Positions 5,801-49,021 of a DNA stretch of 64,000 nucleotides are shown in pieces. A model generated the notes under the pieces. That model made no database searches and was not told the DNA's origin. It saw only the letters and a list, made by a program, of their open reading frames with translations. Both the position numbers and the translations under genes were made by a program. Origin of the DNA: an uncultured Clostridia bacterium (lineage in GTDB: Bacteria > Bacillota > Clostridia > Christensenellales > DTU072); assembly GCA_944372095.1 (NCBI GenBank), contig CALVYG010000003.1, positions 21,347 through 85,346 on the forward strand, in the 5' to 3' direction. The number at the start of each line of letters is the position of its first letter. Position 1 is the first letter of the stretch.

Positions 5801-5817
5801 TTTTAATTTCCTCAATT

Positions 5818-12967: not shown

Positions 12968-12997
12968 ATCACTTACTTCTCCTGTCCCCTTATGCTA

Positions 12998-14743: not shown

Positions 14744-14767
14744 AACCAATTCCTCCGTTGAGATACT

Positions 14768-20300: not shown

Positions 20301-21258
20301 CGGGATGCATAGTAAGGAATTTCCCGAGAAGCGCGTAAAGCGACGCCAGCTCCGCCTCCAACAAAGCAATGTATTTTCTGTTAAAATTCTCTACTCTCCT
20401 GAATACGGATTCTAGCTGGCGCTCACCATTAGGCACGGACCTCATATAATCCGCTACGGCTTTACTTGAACCGAATTTTAGCGTGAGTTCGGCGTTAAAC
20501 TTCTCACTTGCCAAAACTATCTTCTCTGCCGTCGCGTCATACCTCAATCCGTCGATATCCAAACCCACATCACTGAAAGAATTTTTTAACGCGTCTATGA
20601 CGCAATATATATCCTTTTTGAAATAATTTATAAGTACTTCCGCAATATCTCTGCCCGAAGAATCATCTTGACTGTGCGTTATCGTAAGAACAGGAGCGGC
20701 TTCGTTCTCGGCTAAACGCGCTCCTTTCGTCGTTATTCCGAAACCGATTTCGCTTCTGAACGCCTCGAAAACGCTGATGTAAAAATCGCTAATACATGAA
20801 AGGCTCTTTACTTCGGGAAACGTCACGCCGTTTTGGGTATATTTCTTTATCCCGAATTTCTCTTCCAACTCGTATTCCCACTTGCGAGACATTATTTCAT
20901 TAGGCACGATTATGAGCAGTGACCTTAATTCGTTACGGCTTGCGAGTTCCGATATAATCATGCCCGCTTCTATCGTCTTTCCCATACCCACCTGATCGGA
21001 TAATATACCGCTCTTGTTCAAGTTGAATACAAAATCGTATACCGCTTCTTCCTGATAGGAATAGTAACTGTGATCGCTTTTCTGCCCGAACCAGTTAAAA
21101 CGGTTATAATAATCCTCTTTCAAACGCAATTCCTGCCTGCTTTCGACTTTGCTTACTTCTTTGAGCAGTTCAGTAATTCTATGAATTTGTTCTTCGCTCG
21201 AATCCTCTACCGCCGCCTTTTCGTGTTTCGGCATTTCAACATCGTATTCGCTTAACAT
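17365..21258 (-). CDS. SNF2/RAD54-family (superfamily 2) helicase-like ATPase, 1297 aa, with large insertions and a Cys-rich C-terminal module
   Basis: ATG 21258 with GGAGAAAA upstream. Motif I LSDQVGMGKTIEAG; Ia LLIIVPNEI; II VIVDEVHDY; III IFLTATPIKSDMVDFY; V-VI GVDLQKANTIINFDINYDPLKMEQRIGRIDRI. Confidence 0.9.
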   Translation of the reverse strand: MLSEYDVEMPKHEKAAVEDSSEEQIHRITELLKEVSKVESRQELRLKEDYYNRFNWFGQKSDHSYYSYQEEAVYDFVFNLNKSGILSDQVGMGKTIEAGMIISELASRNELRSLLIIVPNEIMSRKWEYELEEKFGIKKYTQNGVTFPEVKSLSCISDFYISVFEAFRSEIGFGITTKGARLAENEAAPVLTITHSQDDSSGRDIAEVLINYFKKDIYCVIDALKNSFSDVGLDIDGLRYDATAEKIVLASEKFNAELTLKFGSSKAVADYMRSVPNGERQLESVFRRVENFNRKYIALLEAELASLYALLGKFLTMHPEESARISGGLSKKYPILVVPISSTDSQTGATTPFLNHELAPEIKNYRHEYSTQDGEGIIPYYESYKVIDFFIDAAYQTVIVDEVHDYIDVRAKVNTDDFHLRQAEFVEKYPAKQFNRYELFDDYYFIEKTSLYKKLKDLADKAKRKIFLTATPIKSDMVDFYLLTLLACNKDAETYEVLSRDLDTADPKSIDDIRQSVYKCITEIAAEFFTDHHSEYLREAPKNSAGNKYAFPYMHTQYIEKNASDAENIKNYLLSHFSYMSINEVVMNLLSAYKLETKHEDGAIDQRLDDVNSLLLNDGILELMKGIEPTSDMRTRVVFRALLDNPIRLRFEEDFIGENNEPIKRIRDMLVLKDGPRRWYNTYRKYGIRHTRHQTYNLGNFPDASVTDMLKSGKMERYRNLPIWPKRNGNVIYLQRIDRFFDSYLTTRNKDISALHSGEVDIESLPNYGTLKGTEASKQKRFAAAKQLFAYINDSMSGGDEHHLPQHSYYESVQIGDENMIEYKLALVNKLMEGTDASLGNINNMVLLFADGRYRDIITKWFAYQGCSPLTEKLGAINESTKKKFDKAFERYGISSVKQSWRVSEQTDDINRYRGNLLVIIDPKRYEKGVDLQKANTIINFDINYDPLKMEQRIGRIDRIRPASQEQSINIISFVPLNDMSGFVINFFANEMLMFTQWMGETTGIVSVPEESRENVQTSEAKEDISFEGNVNKLEKFYLILYRLCTEEVDRTDIDHAADEFSAEFGTDKDFTKADFVYINAMRKVYEKMFVNSIYKGRRDDSDKDKVVRFNSRRNVFLDCSDARDCNKCPNYSQCKSEGGEGVVNSYSEFTKAAEKFAGESIKFYENMLSTLSARGTLVQGQDNKMSRQDAFFRSRRKEFEELKSKLKTNLKSDPMKPFVMTIKEFDAIMNPIKKLYWDDVVKRYIDRVLKQFYKQCDSVLESAAMFEKFIKTLSIAEFMSNMDENVEFDDEIITEE

Positions 21259-21280
21259 GATTTTCTCCGTTTTTGTTTTT

Positions 21281-22429
21281 TTATCGTGTTTTATTTTTTA
21301 TGAAGCCCGCACGCAAACTGCCTACATACAATTCGCCATTAAAGAGACTCACCTTATTGCTGGTCATTTCAAGGACGAAACTGCGTTCAGTAACCTCGCG
21401 CATCCTGTCTTTGTAGCGCCTTATAATTTCCGCTCTCGCATCGGTGATCTTGACGTAACGCAACTGTCTTTCGTTATCCTCCAATATAAGGTTAAAGTGT
21501 GCGTTTTCGTTAAACAGTTCGCCGTCCGACTGAGACTTAATCTCGGAAACGGGATAGGTATAGCACACCTTTTCCGAACCCGTATGCGATTTATAATATA
21601 CGTACAATACGTTATTAAAAGACTGTATCGTCGTTATATCGAAACCAACCTTAAAGCCAAATCGACACACACTCCCGGGATTCCCTAAACGCAATTTACA
21701 AACCCGGTTTTCGGATACCCAAAGTATATCGCCGCCGTCTGAAACTATAAGCGGTTCTCTGACAAACTCTCCGTTTTCGATATTAAATTCACCATTTCCT
21801 ATCATAACCGTTTCTATGCGGCGTTTGTCGGGTACAAAACGATAATACCCGAGTTTCTCGTCATGAATAACAAATATATTTGAACCTATACATGATACGA
21901 AACTGCTTGTCGCATACGTAGACGGGAGTTCGACGGCGGCCATGGGTTTAAGCTTTATCTTCCCCGCAATGTCTATTAAATAAACGGTAAGGTTGCACTT
22001 GTCTTTCTCCGAGGCGATTGCCACAAGATAGTACCCGACGCCTGTCTCCTGCGGAAGACATATGATACCCCATGCCCTAACGGTTTCTCCGGGATACAAC
22101 ACGCGATTGGCGTCATAGATAATATATCCGTTCGCATCCAACGCGAACACGGCACCGTTTAACCAAAGTTCGGGCAGACCTTCTTCGGACATGCGACGAC
22201 TGTAAACGTACCTGACGTCTCCGGGTCCTATGACGCAGTTATTCCCTATGTCGCCGTTTGTAAGCAGCCGGAACTTGCAATCAACAAGGGTATTTTTCCG
22301 ATCCACATATTGCTTCCAATCGTTAAACTCACCCACTATCTCCTGTCCGTATGCAGAAGAACGCACGCTAAGTTTCGACGTATAGAACAGCTTTTCTTTT
22401 TTAGTTGCTTTATAAAAGCATTTCAGCAT
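21281..22429 (-). CDS. Hypothetical beta-rich protein (382 aa), possibly propeller-like
   Basis: ATG 22429 with GGAGAGAGGA upstream. Gaps of 14 and 22 bp to its neighbours. I recognised no catalytic motif. Confidence 0.6.
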   Translation of the reverse strand: MLKCFYKATKKEKLFYTSKLSVRSSAYGQEIVGEFNDWKQYVDRKNTLVDCKFRLLTNGDIGNNCVIGPGDVRYVYSRRMSEEGLPELWLNGAVFALDANGYIIYDANRVLYPGETVRAWGIICLPQETGVGYYLVAIASEKDKCNLTVYLIDIAGKIKLKPMAAVELPSTYATSSFVSCIGSNIFVIHDEKLGYYRFVPDKRRIETVMIGNGEFNIENGEFVREPLIVSDGGDILWVSENRVCKLRLGNPGSVCRFGFKVGFDITTIQSFNNVLYVYYKSHTGSEKVCYTYPVSEIKSQSDGELFNENAHFNLILEDNERQLRYVKITDARAEIIRRYKDRMREVTERSFVLEMTSNKVSLFNGELYVGSLRAGFIKNKTR

Positions 22430-22443
22430 TGTCCTCTCTCCGC

Positions 22444-24978
22444 TCAGCCCCTCGTAATCATGATGTTTTCTCCGTAACGATCTTCATTTCTGAGTCCCCT
22501 GTTGTTTAGAAGAATTGTATATATATCCTGCTCGCTCCCCTCGGCAAATCTGCGCTTATAGTCGCACAGATCTTCTTTTGTAAAATAACTTGCCAACGGC
22601 GATTCCTTGCCGTTCAAGTCGAGCCTTTCTATTATAAACTGTTCCAATCGCCTGTTTATCGGTGCGTCTTTAAGCATTTCCAATGACATATATCCTTTAC
22701 TGTCAGTGGGTTTCATGATCTCGGCATAGCCGTAGCGATGCTCAATACAATATCTTTTCAATTCATCGTATTTATCTATGTTTAGATGATAAGCCGCAGT
22801 ACGGAAGTTTTTCATCTCTATTATGACAATTCTTCCTTTGTAGTCTTTCACAACAAAATCGGGATAATACTTGTGGTTTGCAAGCCTAGCAGAGACGTAT
22901 TCGAGCTCTGCGCTCTGTGCCTTAATGTCCGACAAAAATCCCGTTTTCGCCATAAGAGACGCAAACCTGCTCTCAAGAAAAGAGTCGCATTCAAGGGTTC
23001 TTATTTTGCCCGCGATGTCTACCTCGAGCGTGCAACGATGCTTTGTTGTCTCATCGTATTCTTTTTCTATGTCCGGAAACAGTTCGTCAAGATCCGCTTC
23101 GGGAACAATCTTTACGTTCTCGGGATATGTAATGAGCGACTCAATAAGACGGCACTTTTCCGAATCGGGAATCCGTGAAGCCACAATGCTGCGTTTTTCC
23201 CATCTTTGGTTGTTTTCTCCGCGAAGTCCTGCTTCCTCGGCGTTTTTTCCGTTAAGTTCGGCGTCCTCAAAATATTCACCCAAATTCTCTTCGAAATCAT
23301 CGTTATCGTACTCCGCATTGCCTAAGTCATTTAAGGTGTCTCCGGCGTCCTGTATATTCGTGTAATTTGTGCTTTCGGCATCTTTTTGTTGCATCGGCAA
23401 AGCATCGCTCGGGTCGGAGCTCTCAATTCCTCCTTCGTTGATAAAGTAATTATTTTTTTTTCCTGTCGAAATATTCGGATTGTCGCCGTCGCATGAAACG
23501 GGCGAATTTTTATCATCTTTAGCTGAATCTCCTAAGTCCTTTTTCTTGGCGGGGGGCGTCAATCCAAGCACTTCATATGCCTTTGGCATGGCTATGCGAC
23601 CCTGTGCCTGAATCATTAACAAGCCTTTTTTAATGAGATAAGCTTCATACTTTTGTTTGAGTACGTTATTGCTCTCGTTCATTGCTCTGGCGAGCGTATC
23701 GATACTGACGGGACCGCCGCCATACCTCTTGACGATAATGCCGAGCAATTGTCTGTCTCCCTCTTCAAGTCCGTACTTGTCTATACGGCTGCTCTTGAAG
23801 TATTCCTCAATAATGTCCGACGTAATTCTTATGTTACACTTGCGAATTTGTTCAACACTGTTGAAATGCCCCTGTAAGCGGATACCGTTTCTTTCGGCAT
23901 ACCTCACAAGCGCGTTACTGGATATCATGTTCACCATGTTGTTGGCAATCCTGGGATTATTTCTGCAACGCTTGGCTATACTCAAAGCGTCGGTGTCGTA
24001 TATACTCATGCCGCCGCGGTAAAATGATTTGGCGATAATTTGCGCAATCACATTGTCGTTGTATTCTTTAAGGCGCACAAGTATAGTGCGTTGAGTCAAC
24101 GGACCCGCAAGTTCTCCAAGCTCCGTTGTCGCACCGATGAGCGTAAAGGGCGGCAATTCTATCGTTTCTGTCCTTGCGAGTTTTCCTTTGCCCTCAGTAT
24201 ATGTAATGCAATGATCCTGCAACGCCGAATACAATAGCGACTCCGCAATTTCTTTGGGTAGCGTATGTATCTCGTCAATAAAAACTATATCTTTCGCTTT
24301 GAGAGATTTCAGCATGGCAAGCATACTGTTCATGTTTATGCCGTTTACATTGATTTCTTTGAGGCTCATCCCCATTTCATTGGCGATGATTCTCGCAAAC
24401 GTCGTTTTTCCTAAACCGTGCGACCCGTATAAAATCAAATGCGGCAATACCGTGTCCTTTAATTTGGCGGCGTTTATCAGCGTAGAAACACAGTTTACGG
24501 CATCGGATTGCCCGACATATTCCGATAACCATTGCGGCGCCATAGCGTTAAGTCTGCGGTTTTTCGGTCCATGCGATTGTTCCTTCTTTAACGGGTCTAC
24601 AATATCTATGGGTCTAAGCGACTTTCCGGTATCTTTTTGTGGCGTTTCTCTTCCATCTGCGTTGAACGATTTGTCAGATTTTTGAAAAAGCTCGTCAACC
24701 GTTTGATATTGCTTATCGGGTGCGCTATCCGCATCTCCTTTTTTTTCTTTTGCCGAATCGGCTTTAATTTTAGACTGAGCTTCATCGGCAAGCGACAGAC
24801 ACGAATTGTAGTAGCGCATATACTTTGCTCTGACTTCCCCGCCGGACAGGCTCGCTATGACCAACGCTATCTCGCATGCTTTTAGAAAGCATTTTCGCGC
24901 CCCGGCGTAATCGCCGTCGCGCATTTTTTCCTCCGCCTCGGTAAGAGATGATACTATTTGGCGTTCTTTATCCTGCAT
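22444..24978 (-). CDS. Fusion protein: N-terminal MIT-like domain + RuvB-like AAA+ ATPase with winged helix + C-terminal PD-(D/E)xK (TnsA-N/restriction-endonuclease-like) nuclease domain
   Basis: MIT-like: EAEEKMRDGDYAGARKCFLKACEIALVIASLSGGEVRAKYMRYYNSCLSLADEAQSKI. RuvB-like: HLILYGSHGLGKTTFARIIANEMG, IVFIDEIHTL, LPPFTLIGATTELGELAGPL, NPRIANNMVNMI, GLEEGDRQLLGIIVKRYGGGPVSIDTLARAM...YEAYLIKKGLL. Nuclease: YYPDFVVKDYKGRIVIIEMK (nt 22810-22869). Confidence 0.85.
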   Translation of the reverse strand: MQDKERQIVSSLTEAEEKMRDGDYAGARKCFLKACEIALVIASLSGGEVRAKYMRYYNSCLSLADEAQSKIKADSAKEKKGDADSAPDKQYQTVDELFQKSDKSFNADGRETPQKDTGKSLRPIDIVDPLKKEQSHGPKNRRLNAMAPQWLSEYVGQSDAVNCVSTLINAAKLKDTVLPHLILYGSHGLGKTTFARIIANEMGMSLKEINVNGINMNSMLAMLKSLKAKDIVFIDEIHTLPKEIAESLLYSALQDHCITYTEGKGKLARTETIELPPFTLIGATTELGELAGPLTQRTILVRLKEYNDNVIAQIIAKSFYRGGMSIYDTDALSIAKRCRNNPRIANNMVNMISSNALVRYAERNGIRLQGHFNSVEQIRKCNIRITSDIIEEYFKSSRIDKYGLEEGDRQLLGIIVKRYGGGPVSIDTLARAMNESNNVLKQKYEAYLIKKGLLMIQAQGRIAMPKAYEVLGLTPPAKKKDLGDSAKDDKNSPVSCDGDNPNISTGKKNNYFINEGGIESSDPSDALPMQQKDAESTNYTNIQDAGDTLNDLGNAEYDNDDFEENLGEYFEDAELNGKNAEEAGLRGENNQRWEKRSIVASRIPDSEKCRLIESLITYPENVKIVPEADLDELFPDIEKEYDETTKHRCTLEVDIAGKIRTLECDSFLESRFASLMAKTGFLSDIKAQSAELEYVSARLANHKYYPDFVVKDYKGRIVIIEMKNFRTAAYHLNIDKYDELKRYCIEHRYGYAEIMKPTDSKGYMSLEMLKDAPINRRLEQFIIERLDLNGKESPLASYFTKEDLCDYKRRFAEGSEQDIYTILLNNRGLRNEDRYGENIMITRG

Positions 24979-25014
24979 AATCTGTCCTTTATAAAACGCA
25001 CAACCGTCCGTGAA

Positions 25015-25599
25015 TTATTTATTTATTTCCTCACGGAGGCTTGCAAGTTTTTTCTCTATCTCGTCGTTGCTCATACCTGACTGACTTTTACCATATATTT
25101 TATTGTCAATCTCGGTATCGTCCACGTTGCTGATTTTATCCGCAAATACGCCGACCTCGTTTTGGTTAGATTCTAAAACTTCGATAACTTCCTCTGTTTG
25201 CGCGGTAACCTTTTCCATTGCTTCCTGAATTTCGTTCACAAACTTGCTCATATCCTCTGTGGTGTTTGCAGCAATACTTTTACCTATATCTCCAAGCGCA
25301 TGCACAAAATCTGTCGTCATTGCAGACATTTCTTTCATCTGCGATACAATTCTGAGATTGACCAGCATCGCAAACGTACGCTTCTTTTCCCCTATCGTCA
25401 ATTTGAGCGCTTTTTTAGCCAACTCAATCTGTTCCGGCAACGCTTCGCGCATGGCTACTTTGGCGGCATTGATATAAACTTGTTCCTGATCCTCGAGCTT
25501 TTTGATGCGCCTTTCAAGCTGGTTCATAGCCTTATTGACTGCCATTCTGCGCTCGCGCTCTTTTTCGGCCTTACTCTTAAACAAATTAGGTTTTTTCAT
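25015..25599 (-). CDS. Snf7/ESCRT-III-like (PspA/Snf7 superfamily) coiled-coil protein, 194 aa, with MIM1-like C-terminal helix
   Basis: AAGGAG SD. The helical pattern LERRIKKLEDQEQVYINAAKVAMRE..ELAKKALKLTIGEKKRTFAMLVNLRIVSQMKEMSAMTTDFVHALGDIGKSI..MSKFVNEIQEAMEKV aligns by eye with the CHMP/Snf7 core. The tail NDEIEKKLASLR fits (D/E)xxLxxRLxxL(K/R). Confidence 0.7.
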   Translation of the reverse strand: MKKPNLFKSKAEKERERRMAVNKAMNQLERRIKKLEDQEQVYINAAKVAMREALPEQIELAKKALKLTIGEKKRTFAMLVNLRIVSQMKEMSAMTTDFVHALGDIGKSIAANTTEDMSKFVNEIQEAMEKVTAQTEEVIEVLESNQNEVGVFADKISNVDDTEIDNKIYGKSQSGMSNDEIEKKLASLREEINK

Positions 25600-25655
25600 G
25601 TTTGCTCCTTAATAAATATTCAATATATACTTGTTGTTTTCGTTCGAACGAGCCT

Positions 25656-26825
25656 TTATGACTGATTGTCGGTTAAGCTTTGAACAAGCTCTTCCACAGT
25701 CGGCAGATCACATATTTTGAGCGTGGATAAAACGTTTTTATCGTTCAATTCTCTTACGGAAAGTTGTCCAAGCCTGATGTTCTGCCTTGCCATCATTTTC
25801 TCGAAAAGCATTCTGACATCCCTCGCGTTACCAAAGTATTTTCCCCTTGCGCTCTTAAGTTCCGCAAGACGATCGGTAATTGCCGTTCGGACAACCTCGG
25901 GGTCTTCCTCGAAAACAAATTTCTGTTTTTTGCAGAGTTTTATCAGAATGTTGTACATTTCTTTCGGGGCGTAATCTTCAAATTCAATCGTCCAATTAAA
26001 GCGGGAAGCAAAACCTACATTCGACTTCATGGCGGCATCCATTTCATCTGAATAACCTGCAAGTATCACCACAAAATCAGCACGGTTGTTTTCGACCGCG
26101 GTAAGCAAAACGTCTATTGCCTCCTTTCCGAAATCGCTTCCCGAATCAGCTTTATAAAGAGTATAAAACTCGTCGACAAACAATACTCCGCCTAAGGCCG
26201 AATCCACAACTTCCTGCGTCTGCTGAGCCGTATGCCCCACATACTTCCCTACTAGACCGACCCTTGCGTTTACTTCCACAAGGTGGCCTTTGCTAAGTAA
26301 CCCGAGCGCACTGAAAATATCACCCATAATTCTTGCAACGGTAGTTTTTCCTGTCCCGGGATTGCCCTTAAAAATCATGTGATTGGAAGAAGCATATATC
26401 GGAAGTCCCTGTTCTTCTCTAAACTTGTTTATGCGGATTTGCTGTATAATCTGCATAACCCTGTTTTTCACGTTATGAAGACCCTCGAGCGAATTAAGCT
26501 CTTCCAGCGCGCTTTCCAGCGAAGGCGCGGGTTTTGAGGACGAATCATCTGCTTTGGCATTGTTTTGTCCGCCTGTTTTCGCGCCGGCACAAGGGGTGGA
26601 CTTAACCACTTTACCGCCGACTTTATCTATCATATTCTTGATAGACATGGCTTGCTCGACATATGCCTGTCGCTCGCTTCCCGAAGACTGTTCCGCCAAA
26701 ACAACGGCGCTTTTCAGAGCGCGTTGCAAAAAAATCATTGCTTGATTATAATTATTTTGTTCAAGATATTTCAGCGCAGTCTCACGATTGGTGCGATATT
26801 CCTTCTTCAATTCTTCATTCGGCAT
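25656..26825 (-). CDS. MIT-like domain + AAA+ ATPase (SpoVK/CbbX/EccA-type core); Vps4-like architecture
   Basis: GGAGGG SD. N-terminus ALKYLEQNNYNQAMIFLQRALKSAVVLAEQSSGSERQAYVEQAMSIKNMIDKV has the MIT pattern, followed by a low-complexity linker. Then MIFKGNPGTGKTTVARIMG (Walker A), GGVLFVDEFYTL (Walker B), VVILAGY and GFASRF. Confidence 0.8.
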   Translation of the reverse strand: MPNEELKKEYRTNRETALKYLEQNNYNQAMIFLQRALKSAVVLAEQSSGSERQAYVEQAMSIKNMIDKVGGKVVKSTPCAGAKTGGQNNAKADDSSSKPAPSLESALEELNSLEGLHNVKNRVMQIIQQIRINKFREEQGLPIYASSNHMIFKGNPGTGKTTVARIMGDIFSALGLLSKGHLVEVNARVGLVGKYVGHTAQQTQEVVDSALGGVLFVDEFYTLYKADSGSDFGKEAIDVLLTAVENNRADFVVILAGYSDEMDAAMKSNVGFASRFNWTIEFEDYAPKEMYNILIKLCKKQKFVFEEDPEVVRTAITDRLAELKSARGKYFGNARDVRMLFEKMMARQNIRLGQLSVRELNDKNVLSTLKICDLPTVEELVQSLTDNQS

Positions 26826-26843
26826 TACGATTCCCTCCGAAAA

Positions 26844-27458
26844 CTAATTGAGTCCGTTCATCTTCTTCAATTCCGACAGTTCATTATCGAAAGATTTGTT
26901 CTCGTCGCGAACATTTTCAACAGAAATTTCTTCGGCGGACGACGTTGCGTCTTTGATTAAAGCTTCGACTTCGGGATCGACTTCAAACTGCATAGACATC
27001 GCATCCATTCCGTCGTAAGCAGCCTCCTGATTTGCCGTGCTTTCTTCTAGTCGATGCCATATATCATCTACTTTCCCCATTCCCGCAAATATATTGATAT
27101 CTTTAAAAAGATTTTGCATGCGCTTACTCACGTTATCAATAACAGACGGAAGCGAATCGTCTTGCTGTTGCTCGTAAATCATAAGCATCATTTCCGCCTG
27201 AGGTATGAATTGCTGCGCACGCATAATGGCATTGACCGTAATTTTAAGCGATTTTGCGGCAATGTTATAAATTATAGGATCCTTTTTTTGCTTTGCCTGA
27301 CGGCAAATCTCAATCATTTTATCCCTAACGCTTTCAAGCTTTCCGATTTGATTGGAAACTTTTCTGATTTCCAACCTTGTCGAGGCTTTGACTTGCAAAA
27401 CACCGGACAAATCGTCGGTGGGTCCGATATCCTTTTTATCCTTATTAAAAAAAGCCAT
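26844..27458 (-). CDS. Snf7/ESCRT-III-like coiled-coil protein, 204 aa, with acidic region and MIM1-like tail
   Basis: AGGAGA SD. Core: EIRKVSNQIGKLESVRDKMIEICRQAKQKKDPIIYNIAAKSLKITVNAIMRAQQF...VIDNVSKRMQNLFKDI. Acidic stretch: DPEVEALIKDATSSAEE. The tail NKSFDNELSELK has hydrophobics at positions 4/8/11 and K at 12. Confidence 0.65.
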   Translation of the reverse strand: MAFFNKDKKDIGPTDDLSGVLQVKASTRLEIRKVSNQIGKLESVRDKMIEICRQAKQKKDPIIYNIAAKSLKITVNAIMRAQQFIPQAEMMLMIYEQQQDDSLPSVIDNVSKRMQNLFKDINIFAGMGKVDDIWHRLEESTANQEAAYDGMDAMSMQFEVDPEVEALIKDATSSAEEISVENVRDENKSFDNELSELKKMNGLN

Positions 27459-27476
27459 ATTTCTCCTAAAATAATA

Positions 27477-28127
27477 TTATTGTTTATTCATTTTGTTCAA
27501 ACGGTCTATAGTATCCTGCAAATCCTTATCGTAAAATTCTTTTGAACTTCCCGCTGAGTTTGAGATGCCGGAACTACCGTATTTTGCGTTAATTAACCCA
27601 TCGACAAGCGGGTCCGATTCAAAATTGTCGAAAGTTTCCGAAGAAAATTCGGGCATCATCGCGTCAATTTGCATCTGCCACTCTTCAATATACTGTTGTT
27701 GCATCTCCATATCGGCGTTCATTTTCATAACATTGTTCTCGAATTCGCGCTGAGCGGACGGGTCGTACAGGAATTTCCCAGCACCGTTAATTATAGTGCT
27801 CATCGACTTATTAATCTCTTTGCAGGACGCACTCATTTCCCCCATCGCCATAACGATATCGATCTGCCCCAACACGCGCTCAAGCATCTTTTTTCTTCTC
27901 AGCGCAACTTTGACAACCGATGCGTATTGCTTATACATCATACCGTTTGAGGCACGCTTTGCTTCCGCAGCTTTATCAACGCACTCTTCGAGTTTTTTTT
28001 CAGCTTTGCCGAGTTCTGCCACAACTTTTGCGCGTTCGGTTTTAGCCGCAGTCCTGTCACGGATTTCGGCTTGGGCCTTAGCTTGCTCTTCTTCTGCACG
28101 CTTTTTCTTACTCTTAACCCAAATCAT
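27477..28127 (-). CDS. Snf7/ESCRT-III-like coiled-coil protein, 216 aa (CHMP1-like pattern), with MIM1-like tail
   Basis: AAGGAGA SD. Core: KKLEECVDKAAEAKRASNGMMYKQYASVVKVALRRKKMLERVLGQIDIVMAMGEMSASCKEINKSMSTII...REFENNVMKMNADMEMQQQYIEE. Tail: DKDLQDTIDRLNKMNKQ. Confidence 0.7.
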   Translation of the reverse strand: MIWVKSKKKRAEEEQAKAQAEIRDRTAAKTERAKVVAELGKAEKKLEECVDKAAEAKRASNGMMYKQYASVVKVALRRKKMLERVLGQIDIVMAMGEMSASCKEINKSMSTIINGAGKFLYDPSAQREFENNVMKMNADMEMQQQYIEEWQMQIDAMMPEFSSETFDNFESDPLVDGLINAKYGSSGISNSAGSSKEFYDKDLQDTIDRLNKMNKQ

Positions 28128-28172
28128 ATTGTCTCCTTGTTTGATTCTCCGTTTAGTCTTTGCATAACCTGA

Positions 28173-29075
28173 CTAATTGTCGTTCCTTATCGCCTGTTTG
28201 AAAGAAGAACGGGATTCCTCTTTTTCTTCGACTTCGAAATTTCTGAACGCCTTATTTAGTTCATTGTCTTTTTCCGCATTTATAGCATTCTTGAACGAAG
28301 ACTGTGTCTCCGAACGATTCCTGGAATCGGACGCAGAATATATATTCTTTTCATTATCATCAATAAGCTCCGTTTTTTCGATAAATGTAGCTTTTTTGAT
28401 ATTGAGTTCTTCCACACGCTTAGCAAAAACCTCCGGACTTGTTACCATTGAGCCATCTATTCTTTCCAAAGCATCCATCTGCCCGTCCAAAGAAATTGCC
28501 GCAAGGTTAGCGTTGTACGCTTTTACGGAAAGTAAAACGATTTCTTTTAAATTTTTAACTTGTTTGTCATATTTGTTATATTGCGTTTCGATTCTTACAA
28601 ATTCTGCACTACCTTCGGCCAAATCTTTACCTTTGAGCATTAACTCTCGCATTAAAGCTTCGAGTTCGGCTTGTTTGTTGAGATTGTCATCGATTTCTCC
28701 GACAAGAGTGGCTTGCTTGCGCTTTATTTGAATCTGCTCGTCCGTGTACAGCTCGGAGCCATGCTTGCGCGAATCATAGACAGCCTCCTTTAGCATCTCG
28801 GCACATTGGGCAAACTCTGCATCTTTCCCCGCCCTACAAAGATTGCTCATATCTCCAATAAGTTCGGAAATGCGCTTATCAATAGCTGCTTGCTTTTTGG
28901 GATTGGCATTTTTGGGACAATTCACTTTGTCCAAAAGACGAAGTATGACATTAAGATACTTTATCGTCCCATAGTTATGTTTTTCGTGCATTTCTGCAAT
29001 AAAATCGTTAACGCTTGCTTTGAATTCTATCGTATTTTTTTTGAATTTTTTTTCATAACCGAAAAGTGGTAACAT
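28173..29075 (-). CDS. Coiled-coil protein (300 aa), possibly a fourth, divergent PspA/ESCRT-III-like subunit or adaptor
   Basis: AGGAGAAA SD. Long heptad-like central region (aa ~100-230). The C-terminal tail carries a duplicated motif, SSFKNAINAEKDN / SSFKQAIRNDN. Confidence 0.6.
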   Translation of the reverse strand: MLPLFGYEKKFKKNTIEFKASVNDFIAEMHEKHNYGTIKYLNVILRLLDKVNCPKNANPKKQAAIDKRISELIGDMSNLCRAGKDAEFAQCAEMLKEAVYDSRKHGSELYTDEQIQIKRKQATLVGEIDDNLNKQAELEALMRELMLKGKDLAEGSAEFVRIETQYNKYDKQVKNLKEIVLLSVKAYNANLAAISLDGQMDALERIDGSMVTSPEVFAKRVEELNIKKATFIEKTELIDDNEKNIYSASDSRNRSETQSSFKNAINAEKDNELNKAFRNFEVEEKEESRSSFKQAIRNDN

Positions 29076-29096
29076 TTTTATTTCTCCTATATTCTA

Positions 29097-30071
29097 TTAT
29101 TTAGAAAGCTTTGCGCCGCATTTGGAGCAAAAATTGGTGCCTTTTTTGTACTTTGTACCGCACTCAGAACAATAAACAACATAATTGTCCGCATTGCCGC
29201 GTCTTTTATCGTCACAATCATTGTCGCGTTCGTCCGTACTGAATGTCTTTCCGTTCGTTTTATAAACAATTTTACTTTCGGAGTTCTGTGCGAGATAAAA
29301 CGGCATCATCGCGTCGACGTTTTTTTTCAAAACATCGGCATCGGAGAAGCGTCCTCTATTTTCGTTGATAGTTATCTCCGTCGACATCTTCGCACTATTC
29401 AAACGCGCACGATTTCTCGTATGCTCCGGAGAGTAGTCGAAACAGTCGATTACAAAATCCATAATGGTCAGTCCGTTAGCAACGAAACGCTTATTGAGGT
29501 CGCTTTTAATTTCTTCGGCGCATGCAAGCATTTTGGTCTGAGCCTCGATCATATCGCAGGAAGCCGCAAGAGCGGCGATCCTTGAAAGTATTACCGCGCT
29601 TGCCTCTGTACGTAAATAATCTCTCACCGACGATTTGGTTATGACGCCGTTGTCGGCATATGGCATGGAACTGACAAAACTGTAATAGTTGTCGATGACA
29701 AACTTATACTTGCCGCGAGCAATAGCGGTACAATCCACGCCGAAATCAGGATCAAAACACTTTACGGCATTAGGCCCGGCAAGTCCCCATTCCGCGTCAA
29801 AGAAAGAATTTTGATCTACTGCGTCTATGGAAATACTTTCGGATGGATAAGGCTTATTTCCGCCTATAATTTTTTTATCATTCTTATTAAACAAACCGTA
29901 AATTGTAGAAACCTTCCCGCCCATAAGCGTCTGAACTCCGCCTTCTGCTTTGACTATAAGGGTAATTCCGACATCGGGTTTAAGCACCGTATTGGGAGAT
30001 GCCCCTACTGCGGACACTTTCCAGCAAACAATTTCATCACGGAATCTTTTTTCAACTTTGATTTCAGTCAC
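29097..30071 (-). CDS. SPFH (Band-7_1 / B. subtilis YdjI-like) domain protein with C-terminal zinc ribbon
   Basis: The track ORF extends to ATG 30104, but GTG 30071-30069 lies 8 nt after GGGAGG (30080-30085). Colinear from memory with YdjI: ARGKYKFVIDNYYSFVSSM, VRDYLRTEASAVILSRIAAL, AEEIKSDLNKRFVANGLTIMDFVIDCFDYSPE. C-terminus: YCSECGTKYKKGTNFCSKCGAKL. Confidence 0.75.
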   Translation of the reverse strand: MTEIKVEKRFRDEIVCWKVSAVGASPNTVLKPDVGITLIVKAEGGVQTLMGGKVSTIYGLFNKNDKKIIGGNKPYPSESISIDAVDQNSFFDAEWGLAGPNAVKCFDPDFGVDCTAIARGKYKFVIDNYYSFVSSMPYADNGVITKSSVRDYLRTEASAVILSRIAALAASCDMIEAQTKMLACAEEIKSDLNKRFVANGLTIMDFVIDCFDYSPEHTRNRARLNSAKMSTEITINENRGRFSDADVLKKNVDAMMPFYLAQNSESKIVYKTNGKTFSTDERDNDCDDKRRGNADNYVVYCSECGTKYKKGTNFCSKCGAKLSK

Positions 30072-30165
30072 AATAAATACCTCCCGAATTGATTGTACAT
30101 GCAAACAAGGGCGGCACTAAAGAAAAAACAAAACCCCCTCATCCGTGTCTTGCAAAACTTTTTTT

Positions 30166-30194
30166 ATTATATCAACACGCGCGTTTTTTGTCAA
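30166..30194 (-). promoter_or_regulatory. Consensus sigma-A-type promoter in front of the 15-gene array
   Basis: Minus strand reads TTGACA (30194-30189), then 17 nt, then TATAAT (30171-30166). It lies about 95 nt upstream of the GTG at 30071. Confidence 0.65.
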
Positions 30195-30626
30195 TAAAAG
30201 TCGACGACGTTTATCAAATTTTATACCATAATGAATAGAAATACTTATAAATTATGATTATGTTGATATTATTGCGTTTAGAACTTCTCGTGCATGCATG
30301 CGCACGAAAAGACTTAGCTTTATACAAACGGTGGGTCTTATAATGGAAATATATCTACAATTCAAAAATTTGAAAAAAGTAAGTATATATAAAAAAATAT
30401 GCAAATTCAAAGACAAACGCTGACGATAGGGTTATAAGTGTTCTCGTTCATATCAACCACTTCTTTGATCTCTTCCGAAATGGAGATGGATTGGTTGATC
30501 TTATCCATACCCAATTCGTCGATCATGGTAAAGATGTGATGCTCCTTTTCCATGCGTATCGCTTCGGCGGTCTCTTTCCGCGATTACAGTTTATTCGAGT
30601 TATCCCCTTGTCTCCACCACAAACAG

Positions 30627-30657
30627 AAAACACCGCAAATTAAGCGGTGTTTTTTTA
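30627..30657 (+). terminator. Orphan intrinsic-terminator-like hairpin
   Basis: aaaACACCGC-aaattaa-GCGGTGTttttttt. The T-tract is on the plus strand, and a weaker TTTTCTGTTT tract is on the minus strand. No convincing gene lies upstream on either strand. Confidence 0.5.
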
Positions 30658-30830
30658 TGACAAAGGGATGAGAACCCCTGATAAAATTCGCAAGTTTACT
30701 CATTGCGCAATTTTGACAATGGTTATTAAATACTGGTTAAATTCGTTTGTCCTAAAATAAGAAATTCGCTCAGACTTTCAATAAAATGTAACTTTTTCCT
30801 CTTCTCTTTATGCTTTTTCTTCTTTTTGCG

Positions 30831-30859
30831 TTGCAAAATCTTCTCTTTTTTTCTATAAT
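30831..30859 (+). promoter_or_regulatory. Sigma-A-type promoter of the Na+ transporter gene
   Basis: TTGCAA (30831-30836), then 17 nt, then TATAAT (30854-30859). It lies inside the 5' extension of track ORF 30810..32246, which argues for the ATG at 30894. Confidence 0.6.
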
Positions 30860-30893
30860 ACCTTTGTATCAGCTTTTTTACAAAGGATTTTTT

Positions 30894-32246
30894 ATGAAAC
30901 ACGTTCGCTCCGCTAAAAATAATTGGTCCGGTAGATTCGGGTTCCTTATGGCTGCCGTCGGCTCCGCCGTCGGTATCGGAAATATCTGGCGCTTCCCTTA
31001 TGTCGCCGGTCAGCAAGGCGGCGCCGTTTTCTTGATTGTTTATGTCGCTATGATTGTTTTTATCGGCTTCTCCGCTATGATTGCAGAATTCGCTATCGGC
31101 AGAAATGCCGCCAGTAACGTTATCGACGCTTTCTCTTCTCAGAAAAAAGCCTGGGGAATTGTCGGTATTTTAAGCTGTATCGTTTCTTTTATTATCGTTT
31201 CTTACTATTCCGTTATCGGCGGTTGGGTCATTCGCTACGCCGTCGGTTATATCGCAGGCGGTAACTTCGTCGCCGACGCAGATTATTCCATCGCTTTCTC
31301 TTCCTTCGTTTCCAACCCCTATTTGCCGATTATTTTTACTTTCGTTTTTATGGCTCTCTGTTTCCTTATTCTTATGTTCGGCGTTCAGAAAGGTATCGAA
31401 AGAGTTAATAAGATTCTTATGCCGATGCTTTTTATTATGTTGGTCTTTGTTATGATTGTTTCTTTGACTATGGACGGCGCAAAACAGGGGGTTGAATTCT
31501 TTATCGTTCCCGATATTAACAGAATCGAAGCTTCCGGCGGTATTGTCGGTATTCTCCTCGCAGCTTTGGGACAGTCTTTTTATTCTCTTTCTATCGGTAT
31601 CGGTATCGGCACTACTTACGGTTCCTATGCCCGTAAAGATGTCAGCCTTACTCAGAACACAGCTATAATTTGCATTTCCGATACGCTTGTTGCAGTTGTG
31701 GCGGGGTTTGCCATTCTTCCCGCAGTTTTTGCCGCAGGTCAGGAACCCACTGCCGGCGCAGGCCTTATTTTCGTCACTTTGCCGGCTGTTTTCGCTTCTC
31801 TTCCTCACGTCCTAGGTATGATTGTCGGCGCTGTTTTCTTCCTTCTCGTTTTCTTTGCCGCTCTCACTTCCGCCATCGCTCTTATCGAAGTCAACGTCGC
31901 AGTCCTCTCGGAAAAACTTAAACTTAACCGAAAACTCGCCGTTGCCATTGTCGTTCTTGCCGCTTTTTTCCTGGCAATTTTCGTTTCTCTTTCTCAGGGC
32001 GCTGTCGAAATGTTCGACCTTCTTAATATCCTTGACGTTTTCTCAAACACCTTTATGCTTCCCTTAATAGGAATACTTACTTGTATCTATGTGGGTTTCG
32101 TCTGGAAAACTCAGAATGCCGTTAAAGAAATTTCTCTTTCCGGTCCGTTCAAATTGGCAAAAATATGGGCTTTCAACATTAAGTTTATTTGCCCCGTCTT
32201 TATCGGCGCTCTCTTTGTTTACGGAATAGTTTCCTTATTTATCTGA
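30894..32246 (+). CDS. Sodium-dependent transporter, neurotransmitter:sodium symporter (SNF/NSS) family
   Basis: MKHVRSAKNNWSGRFGFLMAAVGSAVGIGNIWRFPYVAGQQGGAVFL is the NSS signature. About 11-12 hydrophobic helices. AAAGGA SD 6 nt before ATG 30894. Confidence 0.9.
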   Translation: MKHVRSAKNNWSGRFGFLMAAVGSAVGIGNIWRFPYVAGQQGGAVFLIVYVAMIVFIGFSAMIAEFAIGRNAASNVIDAFSSQKKAWGIVGILSCIVSFIIVSYYSVIGGWVIRYAVGYIAGGNFVADADYSIAFSSFVSNPYLPIIFTFVFMALCFLILMFGVQKGIERVNKILMPMLFIMLVFVMIVSLTMDGAKQGVEFFIVPDINRIEASGGIVGILLAALGQSFYSLSIGIGIGTTYGSYARKDVSLTQNTAIICISDTLVAVVAGFAILPAVFAAGQEPTAGAGLIFVTLPAVFASLPHVLGMIVGAVFFLLVFFAALTSAIALIEVNVAVLSEKLKLNRKLAVAIVVLAAFFLAIFVSLSQGAVEMFDLLNILDVFSNTFMLPLIGILTCIYVGFVWKTQNAVKEISLSGPFKLAKIWAFNIKFICPVFIGALFVYGIVSLFI

Positions 32247-32302: not shown

Positions 32303-33541
<1,239 letters not shown>

Positions 33542-33559
33542 TTATGCTTTATCTATATT

Positions 33560-35137
33560 TTAAATTCCGCTTTGCCCGTAGTTTGAAAGTACTCGTGCCG
33601 ACGGGTCGTTTACATTACATCCTTCCCATTCTTTATTCGGCATCCAGAAATCTTTAATCATTTCGCCGTTATCGGGATAGTATTTTTCAAACAGTTCCCT
33701 ATATAAAAGCGATTCTTTTGTAAATGGCGTTGCGTGCGTATATTTCTTTCTCTTTTCTTCAAATTCTTTGTTCGTGTAAAGTTTTTCCGCATGGTCCTTG
33801 ATATGGTTTACCAACGAATGTCCGACCGCATCGCTGAATGCGGCTTTTTCTCTGAATAATATGTTCTCGGGTAAATAATCTCCCTCAAAAGCTTTTCTCA
33901 ATAAATATTTTCCTTTTCCGTACACGTTCATTTTCTTTTCCGGATTTATGCTGAGCACATACGAAACAAAATCCAAATCTCCGAAAGGTACGCGCGCTTC
34001 CATTGAATTTACGCTTATGCATCTGTCTGCACGCAGAACGTCGTACATATAAAGTTCTTTTACCCTTTTTACGGATTCTTTTTGGAATTCTTCTGCGTCA
34101 GGAGCAAAATCAGTGTATTTATACCCGAATAGTTCGTCGCTTATCTCACCGGTAAGTAAAACTCTTATATCGGTTTTTTCCCTTATTGCCTTACATAACA
34201 AGTACATTCCGACGCTGGCTCTAACGGTTGTTATGTCGTATGTTCCCAGCATATACACCACTTCTTCCAACGACCCGATTACGTCTTCTTTTGTTATAAT
34301 AACTTCGGTATGCTCGCTTTTTATGTAATCTGCGACTTCTTTTGCATACTTCAAATCAATTGCATCCTCTTTCATTCCGATTGCAAAAGTCCTTATAGGT
34401 TTTTTTAACAGCTTCGACGCCACCGCACATACAAGCGAACTGTCCAGCCCCCCCGAAAGCAAAAATCCTATCGGAGCATCTGCGTCAAGTCTTTTTTCTA
34501 TTCCTTTTATAAGCTTGTCTTTTATTTTTCCGCATATTTCTTCAAGCGTTCCGTCTTGATACTTTTTTACTTCCGTTATATTGCGGTATTGTATAAACTT
34601 TCCTTCGCTGTAATAGTATCCCGGAGGAAAAGGATATATTTTTTTACATATACCCGTAAGATTCTTTGCTTCGCTTGCAAAGATTATTCCTGCCGGCGTA
34701 TAACCGTAAAATAAAGGCCGTATCCCTATCGGGTCTCTCGCTGCTAAAAAACTCCTTTTTTCGCCGTCGTATATTATAAGAGCATATTCGGCATCGAGCA
34801 TACCGAACATTTCCGTTCCGTATTTCTCATACATCGGCAATAATATTTCCGAATCGCTCTCACTTTCAAACACAACGCCTTCATCTTCGAGTCCTTGTTT
34901 TATCTTTCTGAACCCGTAAACTTCTCCGTTACAGACAATATAATTTTTTCCTCGTCTGAACGGTTGCATTCCTTTCTCGTCAAGCCCCATTATAGACAGT
35001 CTGTGAAATGCCAATATGCCTTCTCCTACATCAATTATTCTTGACATATCAGGTCCGCGGGACACGGTTTTCATAAACCCTTCTTCAAATATCTCCGCAG
35101 GTACTCCGTACCCTTCCATTCCCATTATCGAACACAT
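33560..35137 (-). CDS. asnB: Asparagine synthase (glutamine-hydrolysing)
   Basis: N-terminal MCS... (Cys2 Ntn nucleophile). PP-loop motif FLLSGGLDSSLVCAVA. Length 525 aa. AAAGGAGAG SD. Confidence 0.9.
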   Translation of the reverse strand: MCSIMGMEGYGVPAEIFEEGFMKTVSRGPDMSRIIDVGEGILAFHRLSIMGLDEKGMQPFRRGKNYIVCNGEVYGFRKIKQGLEDEGVVFESESDSEILLPMYEKYGTEMFGMLDAEYALIIYDGEKRSFLAARDPIGIRPLFYGYTPAGIIFASEAKNLTGICKKIYPFPPGYYYSEGKFIQYRNITEVKKYQDGTLEEICGKIKDKLIKGIEKRLDADAPIGFLLSGGLDSSLVCAVASKLLKKPIRTFAIGMKEDAIDLKYAKEVADYIKSEHTEVIITKEDVIGSLEEVVYMLGTYDITTVRASVGMYLLCKAIREKTDIRVLLTGEISDELFGYKYTDFAPDAEEFQKESVKRVKELYMYDVLRADRCISVNSMEARVPFGDLDFVSYVLSINPEKKMNVYGKGKYLLRKAFEGDYLPENILFREKAAFSDAVGHSLVNHIKDHAEKLYTNKEFEEKRKKYTHATPFTKESLLYRELFEKYYPDNGEMIKDFWMPNKEWEGCNVNDPSARVLSNYGQSGI

Positions 35138-35216
35138 TCCGCAATGCTCTCCTTTTTGCGTTTTACTTTCGAAACTCCGTTGTCAAAACCTTTTTGTTTC
35201 TTTCCCCAATCATTTC

Positions 35217-35250
35217 GTCCGCCTGTTTGGTATTGTCAAAACAGGCGGAC
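35217..35250. other. Strong intergenic stem-loop between amt-PII and asnB (possible terminator or processing site)
   Basis: GTCCGCCTGTTT-10 nt-AAACAGGCGGAC (12-bp stem). The T-rich tract (CGTTTTCGTTTT) is on the plus strand only, so its role for the minus-strand operon is unclear. Confidence 0.35.
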
Positions 35251-35274
35251 CGTTTTCGTTTTAATATATTCTTC

Positions 35275-37038: not shown

Positions 37039-37077
37039 TTTTTTAATCCTCCTTTTATTTCTTAACGTTGGTTCATT

Positions 37078-49001: not shown

Positions 49002-49021
49002 GCGTTTTTCTCCTTTATCGC

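Follow-up and report, generated by a model that had tools for sequence, protein, structure and literature searches.

A candidate ESCRT-III-like module with MIT-domain ATPases and an SPFH protein at the head of a conserved gene array in an uncultured Clostridia bacterium

The stretch of DNA analysed here (the window, 64,000 nucleotides) comes from the genome of an uncultured Clostridia bacterium of the Christensenellales (GenBank assembly GCA_944372095.1, contig CALVYG010000003.1, positions 21,347 to 85,346 of the forward strand). Between positions 25015 and 30104 its minus strand carries six consecutive genes, which very probably encode a module composed of Snf7/CHMP-type ESCRT-III proteins, an ATPase with a MIT domain and an SPFH protein. 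These genes had been singled out in a preliminary description of this DNA, and all six open reading frames (ORFs), with their coordinates and with gaps of 18-56 bp, were reproduced in our analysis. However, they do not form the self-contained operon that had been envisaged, as nine more tightly packed genes follow on the same strand up to the left edge of the window, including those for a MIT-bearing RuvB-like protein with a nuclease domain, an SNF2 helicase and giant membrane proteins. The six-gene module makes up the first third, counted from the 5' end, of a conserved array that comprises at least 15 genes and 30 kb, a putative operon, whose elements are listed below from the promoter onwards, with protein lengths in amino acids (aa) and with the sources of the assignments in parentheses.

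30166-30194, minus strand: promoter, TTGACA-17-TATAAT with a TG extension (12/12 consensus match)
29097-30104, minus strand: SPFH gene, 335 aa; YdjI-like Band_7_1 and C-terminal zinc ribbon
28173-29075, minus strand: 300-aa helical protein with the N-terminus MLPLFGY; family not assigned
27477-28127, minus strand: ESCRT-III-like paralogue 1, 216 aa (hhalign; part of profile A3)
26844-27458, minus strand: ESCRT-III-like paralogue 2, 204 aa (hhalign)
25656-26825, minus strand: AAA+ ATPase with a predicted MIT domain, 389 aa (Pfam, NCBIfam, AlphaFold2, Foldseek)
25015-25599, minus strand: ESCRT-III-like paralogue 3, 194 aa (Pfam Snf7, AlphaFold2, Foldseek)
22444-24978, minus strand: RuvB-like protein with a predicted MIT domain, 844 aa (Pfam, hhalign, motif conservation)
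21281-22429, minus strand: 382-aa conserved protein, position conserved; no family assigned
17365-21258, minus strand: SNF2-family helicase, 1297 aa (Pfam, PADLOC)
14768-17368, minus strand: 866-aa conserved protein with a C-terminal four-cysteine cluster; no family assigned
12998-14749, minus strand: 583-aa conserved protein; no family assigned
6608-12967, minus strand: giant membrane protein, 2119 aa (Pfam repeats, transmembrane scan)
5818-6582, minus strand: 254-aa conserved protein, position conserved; no family assigned
1634-5815, minus strand: membrane protein with leucine-rich repeats (LRR), 1393 aa (Pfam LRR_5, transmembrane scan)
2-1600, minus strand: Zn-ribbon-TPR protein, ORF cut by the window edge (hhalign)

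The promoter, whose presence in front of the six genes had been correctly recognized, ranks first among 52 promoter-like sites in the region 12000-31000. The gaps between the first six genes measure 21, 45, 18, 18 and 56 bp, and Shine-Dalgarno sequences of the GGAG/AGGAG type precede five of the six starts. The strong ribosome-binding site ascribed to every gene is thus lacking in one case only, namely upstream of the TTG codon at 30104 that opens the SPFH ORF. Since AGGGAGG is found 8 nt 5' of a GTG codon at 30071, while the TTG has no such sequence, the SPFH gene probably starts at the GTG. The RuvB-like gene lies directly downstream of the gene for the 194-aa protein, and from there on the gaps are 2-36 bp, with one 4-bp overlap between the start of the 866-aa gene and the stop codon of the SNF2 gene. 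The terminator scan, which reached down to 12 kb, revealed no convincing site on the minus strand inside the array. A terminator-like hairpin of the minus strand (30627-30653) lies upstream of the array promoter, at a distance of about 430 bp; its stem measures 10 bp and its T-tract is weak and interrupted by G (CTGTTTGTGG). There is no obvious end of a minus-strand gene at this site, the sole ORF being one of 96 low-complexity residues at 30726-31016.

For comparison with relatives we used 33 non-redundant loci from a scan of one genome per species. The gene maps of these loci are our own ORF calls, the family-level statistics rest on these calls and on our own alignments, and the E-values from hhalign are those of single pairwise comparisons. 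The proteins of 216, 204 and 194 aa are just 20-25% identical in pairs; iterated hidden Markov models, whichever of the three was the seed, ended with an identical set of 52 ORFs in the related loci. In hhalign comparisons the orthologue group of the 216-aa protein matches those of the 194-aa protein (E 6.8e-10) and of the 204-aa protein (E 5.3e-13), both near full length, and the 216-aa and 204-aa groups match the corresponding family of loci of type B/C (E 6.8e-19 and 2.7e-9, respectively). The 204-aa protein is the most divergent copy, missing from many loci of type A, and the 194-aa protein is the copy kept in all related loci. In two loci of type A, L003 (9115-9933) and L007 (9210 onward), the slot of the 204-aa gene is held by a second, short ATPase with AAA_lid_6 (199-272 aa), so that the paralogue content of the module varies.

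A profile of 47 sequences of this family (A3), compared with the Protein Data Bank (PDB), matched CHMP3 (E 1.1e-5 and 2.4e-4), CHMP2A (E 5.5e-4) and CHMP1B (E 7.5e-3) near full length, and also CHMP1A, while no entry for PspA or Vipp1 appeared among the 42 PDB sequences found at E up to 10. The Pfam family Snf7 (PF03357) is matched by 19 of the 47 members, with a best E of 2.8e-8, and PspA_IM30 (PF04012) is not among the 25 families listed of the 69 that family members match. The AlphaFold2 model of the 194-aa protein (pLDDT, the predicted local distance difference test, 77) comprises helices at residues 10-51, 55-112, 118-144, 146-156, 161-169 and 178-193, i.e. a long hairpin followed by shorter helices and a detached C-terminal helix, as expected for the ESCRT-III fold, and the first three structures retrieved with it by Foldseek are all CdvB of Sulfolobus islandicus (probability 0.77-0.97). 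Most family members share an M[GKP]LFKSK N-terminus that aligns with MGLFGK of CHMP3; the versions found in the window are PNLFKSK (194 aa), MIWVKSK (216 aa) and MAFFNKDK (204 aa). At the other end the family has a conserved acidic linker and an amphipathic helix (e.g. IDxELxxLKxxL), which resembles the MIT-interacting motif MIM1 but is not identical to it. Judged by their sequences, the three paralogues are homologous to one another, and their place within the ESCRT-III superfamily is in the Snf7/CHMP branch, not with PspA/Vipp1. This agrees with the relationship that the preliminary description had proposed by eye, and also with the tests it had suggested: Pfam recognizes Snf7, at the family level, and, among the families listed, not PspA_IM30, and CdvB heads the structural list, at E-values short of significance.

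In the ATPase of 389 residues, the predicted MIT domain spans residues 3-76 (nucleotides about 26598-26819). A homologue search with the full-length protein was swamped by tandem SpoVK-type proteins and returned three true orthologues, and the AlphaFold2 model of residues 1-84 was built from four sequences. It has a pLDDT of 86.9 and three helices (3-22, 26-46 and 49-76), and nearly all of its top 21 Foldseek matches are MIT domains, from Vps4, CdvC, MITD1, katanin p60, spartin and NRBF2. The best of them is 2w2u, the MIT domain of Sulfolobus Vps4 bound to ESCRT-III, with template modelling (TM) scores of 0.79/0.87 and a root-mean-square deviation (rmsd) of 1.5 A; over 2w2u, 2v6y, VPS4A, VPS4B and others the TM-scores are 0.7-0.88 and the rmsd values 1.1-2.9 A. 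At the sequence level, profile A6 gave marginal matches only (MIT, E 0.025; the TPR of ERCC6L, E 0.014). On the other hand, the N-terminal segment of about 80 residues is homologous across three classes of ATPases found in these loci, with classical AAA, SpoVK-type and RuvB-like cores (hhalign E 5.8e-9, 7.1e-12 and 6.3e-13, the second between the 844-aa protein and the classical AAA ATPases, the third between the 844-aa protein and the 389-aa ATPase). The N-terminus of the classical AAA ATPases of sister loci matches MIT structures (E 2.9e-5 and 6.5e-4), and the Pfam family MIT is matched by 6 of 41 members of this sister-locus family (best E 1.5e-6). By the model and by these sequence links, the N-terminus of the window ATPase is a MIT-fold three-helix bundle, and the shared N-termini indicate that a single putative docking domain has become attached to three motors, unrelated among themselves, beside the same polymer genes.

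The core of the same ATPase is another matter. It matches Pfam AAA and AAA_lid_6 and, among NCBIfam models, stage V sporulation protein K (spore_V_K, E 2.4e-76), CbbX (E 2.8e-69) and EccA (E 7e-69), but its score of 256 compares with a cut-off of 423 for SpoVK equivalogs. We considered whether it could be Vps4 itself and rejected this, as the core falls into the SpoVK/CbbX/EccA group and not into the classical clade with AAA_lid_3, and Vps4_C (PF09336) has no match in it. Of the MIT-domain, Vps4-style ATPase of the preliminary description, the MIT part is retained, supported by the confident model and its list of MIT neighbours, and the Vps4 part has to give way to a SpoVK/CbbX-type motor.

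The first gene was correctly described as a YdjI-like SPFH protein with a zinc ribbon. Its product scores above the gathering thresholds both for Band_7_1 (PF13421; 26.6 bits against 24, residues 94-221, about 60% of the model) and for Zn_Ribbon_1 (31 bits against 25). SPFH orthologues are present in 20 of the 33 related loci, many of which lie on truncated contigs, and the zinc ribbon in 20 of 24 SPFH orthologues.

The 300-aa protein encoded next had been counted as a fourth coiled-coil subunit. It has no match in Pfam, NCBIfam or PADLOC, a profile search of the PDB returned only designed proteins and coiled coils, and hhalign gives it a probability of only 12.5% against the ESCRT-III-like profile. 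The sole feature shared with ESCRT-III is the beginning of its family consensus, MGLFGY (MLPLFGY in the window), which is similar to the ESCRT-III N-terminal motif. An ESCRT-III identity could thus not be demonstrated for it, and the four subunits are reduced to three and one unassigned protein. The position of its gene is conserved in type A loci. Locus L010 (5757-7913) carries three tandem copies of this type of protein (296, 207 and 210 aa), which means that the 300-aa family also duplicates.

The remainder of the array begins with the 844-aa protein, in which a MIT-like N-terminus is followed by a RuvB-like AAA+ domain (RuvB_N, E 1.9e-41), a RuvB winged helix (RuvB_C, E 1.8e-15), an acidic linker and a C-terminal PD-(D/E)XK nuclease domain. 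The predicted nuclease motif is intact, its E...PD...E-M-K residues being invariant in 10 orthologues; this region matches the endonuclease phrog_945 (E 5.7e-5) and, weakly, TnsA-like_N. The protein is a RuvB-like paralogue and not RuvB, because it scores below the cut-offs of the NCBIfam RuvB model (275.2 against 282) and of TIGR00635 (241 against 299), is 844 and not about 330 residues long, and has the MIT-like and nuclease domains in addition. The helicase matches Pfam SNF2-rel_dom, Helicase_C and ResIII and, through generic helicase motifs, the PADLOC models of DrmD (E 4.3e-27), DpdE (E 1e-23) and BrxH (E 7e-23). Searches of Pfam, NCBIfam, PADLOC and PHROGs and profile searches of the PDB gave no match for the proteins of 382, 866 and 583 aa, and Pfam and PADLOC gave none for the 254-aa protein. 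Four cysteines of the 866-aa protein (C713, C721, C727 and C730) are invariant, and the 583-aa protein has 71 homologue clusters, none of them bearing a Pfam domain, and always follows an 866-aa homologue.

Two of the last genes encode large membrane proteins. The 2119-aa protein has five N-terminal transmembrane helices followed by LRR_5, Listeria-Bacteroides repeat and MBG domains, and the 1393-aa protein a cytoplasmic N-terminus, three transmembrane helices (259-350) and a BspA-type LRR array (LRR_5, E 3.2e-193). From the helices of the transmembrane scan, the repeat arrays of both proteins are probably extracellular. The ORF at the window edge (2-1600) is tentatively included in the array: it lies 33 bp from the upstream gene, has a GGAGG Shine-Dalgarno sequence, and aligns over 175 columns with a Zn-ribbon-TPR-TIR family of sister loci (hhalign 91.8%, E 7.4e-7). 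A TIR domain was also looked for in this ORF and not confirmed: Pfam TIR has no match, and the alignment takes in no more than the Zn-ribbon-TPR part and the first TIR-like strand.

The family is rare and widely scattered. Among 5.8 billion proteins the 194-aa protein has only 21 clusters of homologues at the 90% identity level, and the family profile, compared with 1.84 billion representatives, finds 587 clusters (50% identity) at E up to 1e-3 and 318 at 1e-10. The hosts are Clostridia (Lachnospiraceae, Oscillospiraceae, Christensenellaceae and Ruminococcus bicirculans), Planctomycetota, Bacteroidaceae, Brocadiaceae and Hydrogenedentes. The nearest of the named genomes in our scan are only 46-53% identical. 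No match was found in phage, plasmid or IMG/VR collections. The linkage of the genes, for which the preliminary description had asked, is kept across phyla: an AAA+ gene lies at most two genes from the ESCRT-III gene in 29 of the 33 loci, and in a thirtieth two TIR genes stand between them. Wherever a type A locus is long enough to show it, a fixed series comes after the six genes, consisting of a RuvB-like protein (700-850 aa), a protein of about 380 aa, an SNF2 helicase (about 1290 aa) and proteins of about 870 and 580 aa. In three genomes that are 38-48% identical (loci L039-L041) this series goes on with a giant protein (2224-2989 aa), one of 261-262 aa and an LRR protein (1358-1608 aa), which is the gene order of the window.

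The loci unlike the window have ATPases with the classical combination of PF00004 and AAA_lid_3. Vps4_C is present in two of them (L014, E 2.2e-5; L028, E 1.1e-5), the former also matching MIT (E 2.8e-5), and the ATPase of one sister locus has its best PDB matches in the D2 part of the two-domain p97/Cdc48. Elsewhere the ESCRT-III-like and AAA+ parts are fused in proteins of 585-842 aa (e.g. P0199, P0222, P0236, P0290 and L028 8024-9835). In P0219, P0220, P0233, P0247, P0254 and P0256 the ESCRT-III-like domain is fused to a Walker A region outside the AAA model. Another family of about 200 aa, encoded 5' of the ESCRT-III gene in other loci, is by its hhalign match (92%, E 6e-7) probably ESCRT-III-like as well. 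The divergent locus L001 (4047-11745) consists of HTH_17, an ESCRT-III-like protein of 216 aa, three proteins with lengths of 420-465 aa (DO-GTPase2 is weakly matched by one of them), ESCRT-III and a MIT-classical-AAA ATPase, has no SPFH gene, and adjoins an OLD-family nuclease and a DUF4011 helicase.

What the sister loci keep is the core of ESCRT-III and MIT-ATPase, in most cases together with SPFH, and what they replace is the block of DNA motors. In its place they carry Zn-ribbon-TPR-TIR proteins (which in two loci stand between ESCRT-III and the ATPase), a BrxL of full length (E 2.7e-205) directly after the MIT-ATPase, a PD-T4-6-like Ser/Thr kinase (E 1e-71) with Sel1 repeats, or a Sel1-trypsin protease. 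A TIR-LRR protein is encoded just upstream of the SPFH gene in the type A locus L007.

Among known systems, the closest to the window is the ESCRT-III/Vps4 machinery of archaea and eukaryotes, with which it shares Snf7-type paralogues of about 200 aa that have an MGLF-type motif, a hairpin core, an acidic linker and an amphipathic C-terminal helix, and that are encoded beside an ATPase bearing a MIT domain at its N-terminus. It differs in that the MIT domains of the window are fused to a SpoVK/CbbX-type AAA+ ATPase and to a RuvB-nuclease protein, neither of which has a Vps4 core; the ATPases of the sister bacterial loci have a classical AAA core, AAA_lid_3 and sometimes Vps4_C. No ESCRT-I, ESCRT-II, CdvA or ubiquitin components were detected. 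The PspA/Vipp1-YdjI system of B. subtilis is similar in that a gene for a polymer of the ESCRT-III superfamily shares an operon with a Band_7_1 SPFH protein, and this SPFH protein localises the polymer to the membrane (work cited in PMC10936438). However, the polymer proteins of the window match Snf7/CHMP, come as three paralogues and are accompanied by MIT ATPases, whereas PspA systems lack MIT-domain ATPases (PMC7619361). The archaeal Meth_adaptin ESCRT loci (Makarova et al. 2024, PMC10936438) contain a protein with the SPFH-zinc ribbon architecture of the first gene of our array, but no adaptin-appendage, GOLD or ProX genes were found in the window.

In bacteria, occasional Snf7/PspA genes beside AAA+ genes, and Vps4-like ATPases transferred to bacteria, have been reported by Ravi et al. 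2024 (PMC11237479), who propose ATP-dependent membrane remodelling for these neighbourhoods. The contexts described there are different, namely a two-AAA-domain protein, ABC transporter operons, and a Vps4-like ATPase with TPR-6TM in the place of Snf7, and its main text contains neither the SPFH-zinc ribbon protein, nor several Snf7 paralogues, nor MIT on SpoVK or RuvB cores, nor the TIR, BrxL, kinase and nuclease modules. Recent papers, including PMC7619361 and PMC10936438, regard the combination of Snf7-type proteins with Vps4 as absent from bacteria, and no prior description of the present architecture was found in the full texts searched, which cover the literature incompletely. As for defence systems, the SNF2 helicase is near to DrmD, DpdE and BrxH, and BrxL occurs in sister loci, but the array showed no methyltransferase and no genes for DrmA/B/C, PglZ, BrxA/B/C or Dpd synthesis. 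To our knowledge, none of DISARM, BREX and Dpd contains ESCRT-III, MIT or SPFH proteins.

The reading towards which we lean, without strong confidence, is that of a membrane-bound ESCRT-III scaffold that recruits MIT-tagged enzymes and is part of what may be a defence or conflict system. By analogy with YdjI-PspA, the SPFH-zinc-ribbon protein would oligomerise into a platform at the membrane's cytoplasmic side, on which the three paralogues would co-polymerise, perhaps aided by the 300-aa protein, with the N-terminal MxLFKSK-type motif as a putative membrane anchor of the polymer. The acidic linkers and amphipathic C-terminal helices of the paralogues may act as MIT-interacting motifs and so recruit the two MIT enzymes. 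Of these, the SpoVK/CbbX-type AAA+ ATPase would extract and recycle subunits in the manner of Vps4, and the RuvB-like motor with its PD-(D/E)XK nuclease, concentrated on the polymer, would pump and cut DNA at the membrane with the assistance of the SNF2 helicase. The giant LRR/MBG membrane proteins might couple this machine to events at the cell surface. A role in defence or conflict is the most likely one because a constant core is combined with interchangeable modules of immune type, a pattern typical of defence systems; that it is directed against phage or invading DNA, as judged from gene content, we suggest tentatively. The accessory genes of sister loci thus lend indirect support to the phage-defence arm mentioned among the possibilities in the preliminary description, though the core matches no PADLOC system. 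A step more speculative is the generalization that bacteria have true Snf7-type ESCRT-III machines, with MIT-domain ATPases and an SPFH platform at their service, in which MIT serves as a portable polymer-docking tag on at least three unrelated motor cores, with the polymer as a membrane-bound hub that recruits interchangeable immune effectors (nuclease, TIR, BrxL, kinase or protease) to the site where phage or foreign DNA breaches the envelope.

Several observations weigh against this reading, or against parts of it. The single sequences of the window match Snf7 weakly (the 194-aa protein alone, E 0.0019 and 18.3 bits against a gathering score of 27.3), so the significance of the ESCRT-III assignment comes from the family profiles. 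None of the Foldseek E-values is significant, neither for the 194-aa model (at least 0.12; 0.12-0.22 for the top three) nor for the MIT model (0.04-0.3, as expected for a bundle of 75 residues), and for this reason the case for the MIT fold is built on rank, TM-score and rmsd. Profile A5 of the ATPase N-terminus matched only consensus-TPR proteins, over 25 residues; with direct sequence matches confined to TPR or marginal, the MIT assignment of the window ATPase draws on the fold together with transitive homology. The leucines of the C-terminal helices are spaced L-x-x-L-x-x-x-L, unlike the canonical MIM1, and polymerisation, binding of the tails by MIT domains and ATP-dependent disassembly are all inferred. 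As regards defence, PADLOC-DB v2 has no match for the SPFH protein or for the proteins of 300, 382, 866, 583 and 254 aa, the three paralogues give only isolated marginal matches (E 0.0019-0.039) and the ATPase a weak match to IetA (E 1e-9), so the argument, with no PADLOC model for the core components, is one of guilt by association. The flanks of the array are housekeeping genes (glutamine synthetase, Amt-PII, RmuC), and the five array proteins with no detectable homology could point to a different function.

Among the alternatives, an apparatus for the formation of vesicles or for the export of DNA and its transfer from cell to cell survives best, but we regard it as unlikely. According to this proposal, ESCRT-III on an SPFH microdomain buds outward, the motors and the nuclease load and cut DNA, and the LRR/MBG proteins coat the vesicle or the contact site and provide the binding to target cells. 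It accounts for the presence, in the type A array, of two DNA translocases and a nuclease alongside a pair of multi-pass membrane proteins bearing adhesin-type extracellular repeats, all conserved as a block, and there is a precedent in Sulfolobus, where ESCRT-dependent vesicles move DNA between cells (PMC7619361). However, the sister loci carry TIR, BrxL, kinase and protease genes instead of DNA motors, which fits interchangeable immune modules better; the Pfam and NCBIfam scans revealed no relaxase, coupling protein or integrase among the array proteins (the five unassigned ones matched nothing); and the family is not found in the plasmid and phage collections.

Somewhat less likely still is a housekeeping role in envelope stress or membrane repair, in which the module would be an analogue of PspA-YdjI supplied with a recycling ATPase, and the downstream genes would be unrelated to it. 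A YdjI-type SPFH gene does stand beside ESCRT-III-superfamily genes, as it does in the ydjFGHI operon of B. subtilis in the account given in PMC10936438, and the locus is chromosomal and lies among metabolic genes. The family, with 587 clusters among 1.84 billion representatives and a patchy occurrence across phyla, does not look like a housekeeping system, though, and the downstream genes are hard to separate from the module, given their conserved order, short gaps with a 4-bp overlap and the absence of a convincing terminator in the region scanned. Besides, the RuvB-nuclease protein shares the MIT domain and has in it a physical tie to the module.

A role in sporulation or division, listed among others in the preliminary description, now appears very improbable; in Clostridia a SpoVK-like ATPase and membrane-abscission proteins would then act at the septum or in engulfment. 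Although stage V sporulation protein K tops the NCBIfam matches of the ATPase, the score is far under the SpoVK cut-off, and relatives of the family occur in Planctomycetota, Bacteroidaceae and Hydrogenedentes. We know of no endospore formation in Bacteroidaceae or Planctomycetota. For division, the fact that ESCRT-III drives it in some archaea (as reported in PMC11237479 and PMC7619361) is countered by the rarity of the family, far too great for a core division function. Equally improbable is that generic coiled coils and a TPR-like hairpin, unrelated to ESCRT-III or MIT, have misled us: single-sequence matches and Foldseek E-values are weak, coiled-coil composition can inflate scores (designed helical proteins and coronavirus spike proteins are among the matches of profile A3) and the ATPase N-terminal profile strongly matches consensus TPR proteins, but Pfam, the PDB profile search, the Foldseek ranking and the N-terminal motif, four independent lines, agree on one family, with alignments that are collinear over the full length, the MIT model fits onto the Vps4 MIT domain at 1.5 A with TM 0.8-0.87, and in sister loci the small protein adjoins ATPases with Pfam MIT or Vps4_C, which chance coiled coils do not predict.

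The surroundings of the array can be described briefly. Upstream of it lies a nitrogen-assimilation cluster on the minus strand (33560-39165), with a type III glutamine synthetase (37078-39165), an ammonium transporter-P-II fusion (35275-37038) and an ORF that by eye resembles asparagine synthase (33560-35137), so that the context is an ordinary chromosomal one; there are no tRNA genes in the window. Just upstream of the promoter region of the array, past a transporter gene, a 388-aa protein is encoded (32303-33469, minus strand), with collagen triple-helix GxT/GPT repeats (Pfam Collagen, E 1.1e-11) and a non-repeat C-terminal domain. Further minus-strand genes, apparently unrelated to the array, encode an RmuC-family protein (49094-50272) and a cell-wall hydrolase with NlpC/P60 and SH3 domains (48117-49037). 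Two large minus-strand ORFs outside the array, of 2084 aa (50292-56546) and 1012 aa (57505-60543), have no Pfam match at E up to 0.001.

If the scaffold reading is correct, these loci offer a bacterial setting in which the mechanics of ESCRT-III and MIT-ATPases can be studied, represented by about 590 clusters over several phyla, together with a natural experiment, the MIT domain being found there in fusion with three different motors. They would also permit a direct test of whether ESCRT-III polymers recruit DNA-acting or immune enzymes as scaffolds, and would be a candidate for a membrane-based class in the prokaryotic defence repertoire. The finding bears, finally, on the origin of ESCRT, i.e. 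on whether bacteria have it by vertical descent from the last universal common ancestor or by horizontal transfer from archaea: the partnership of ESCRT-III with MIT-ATPases would either predate archaea, or have crossed between domains and been re-used for immunity.

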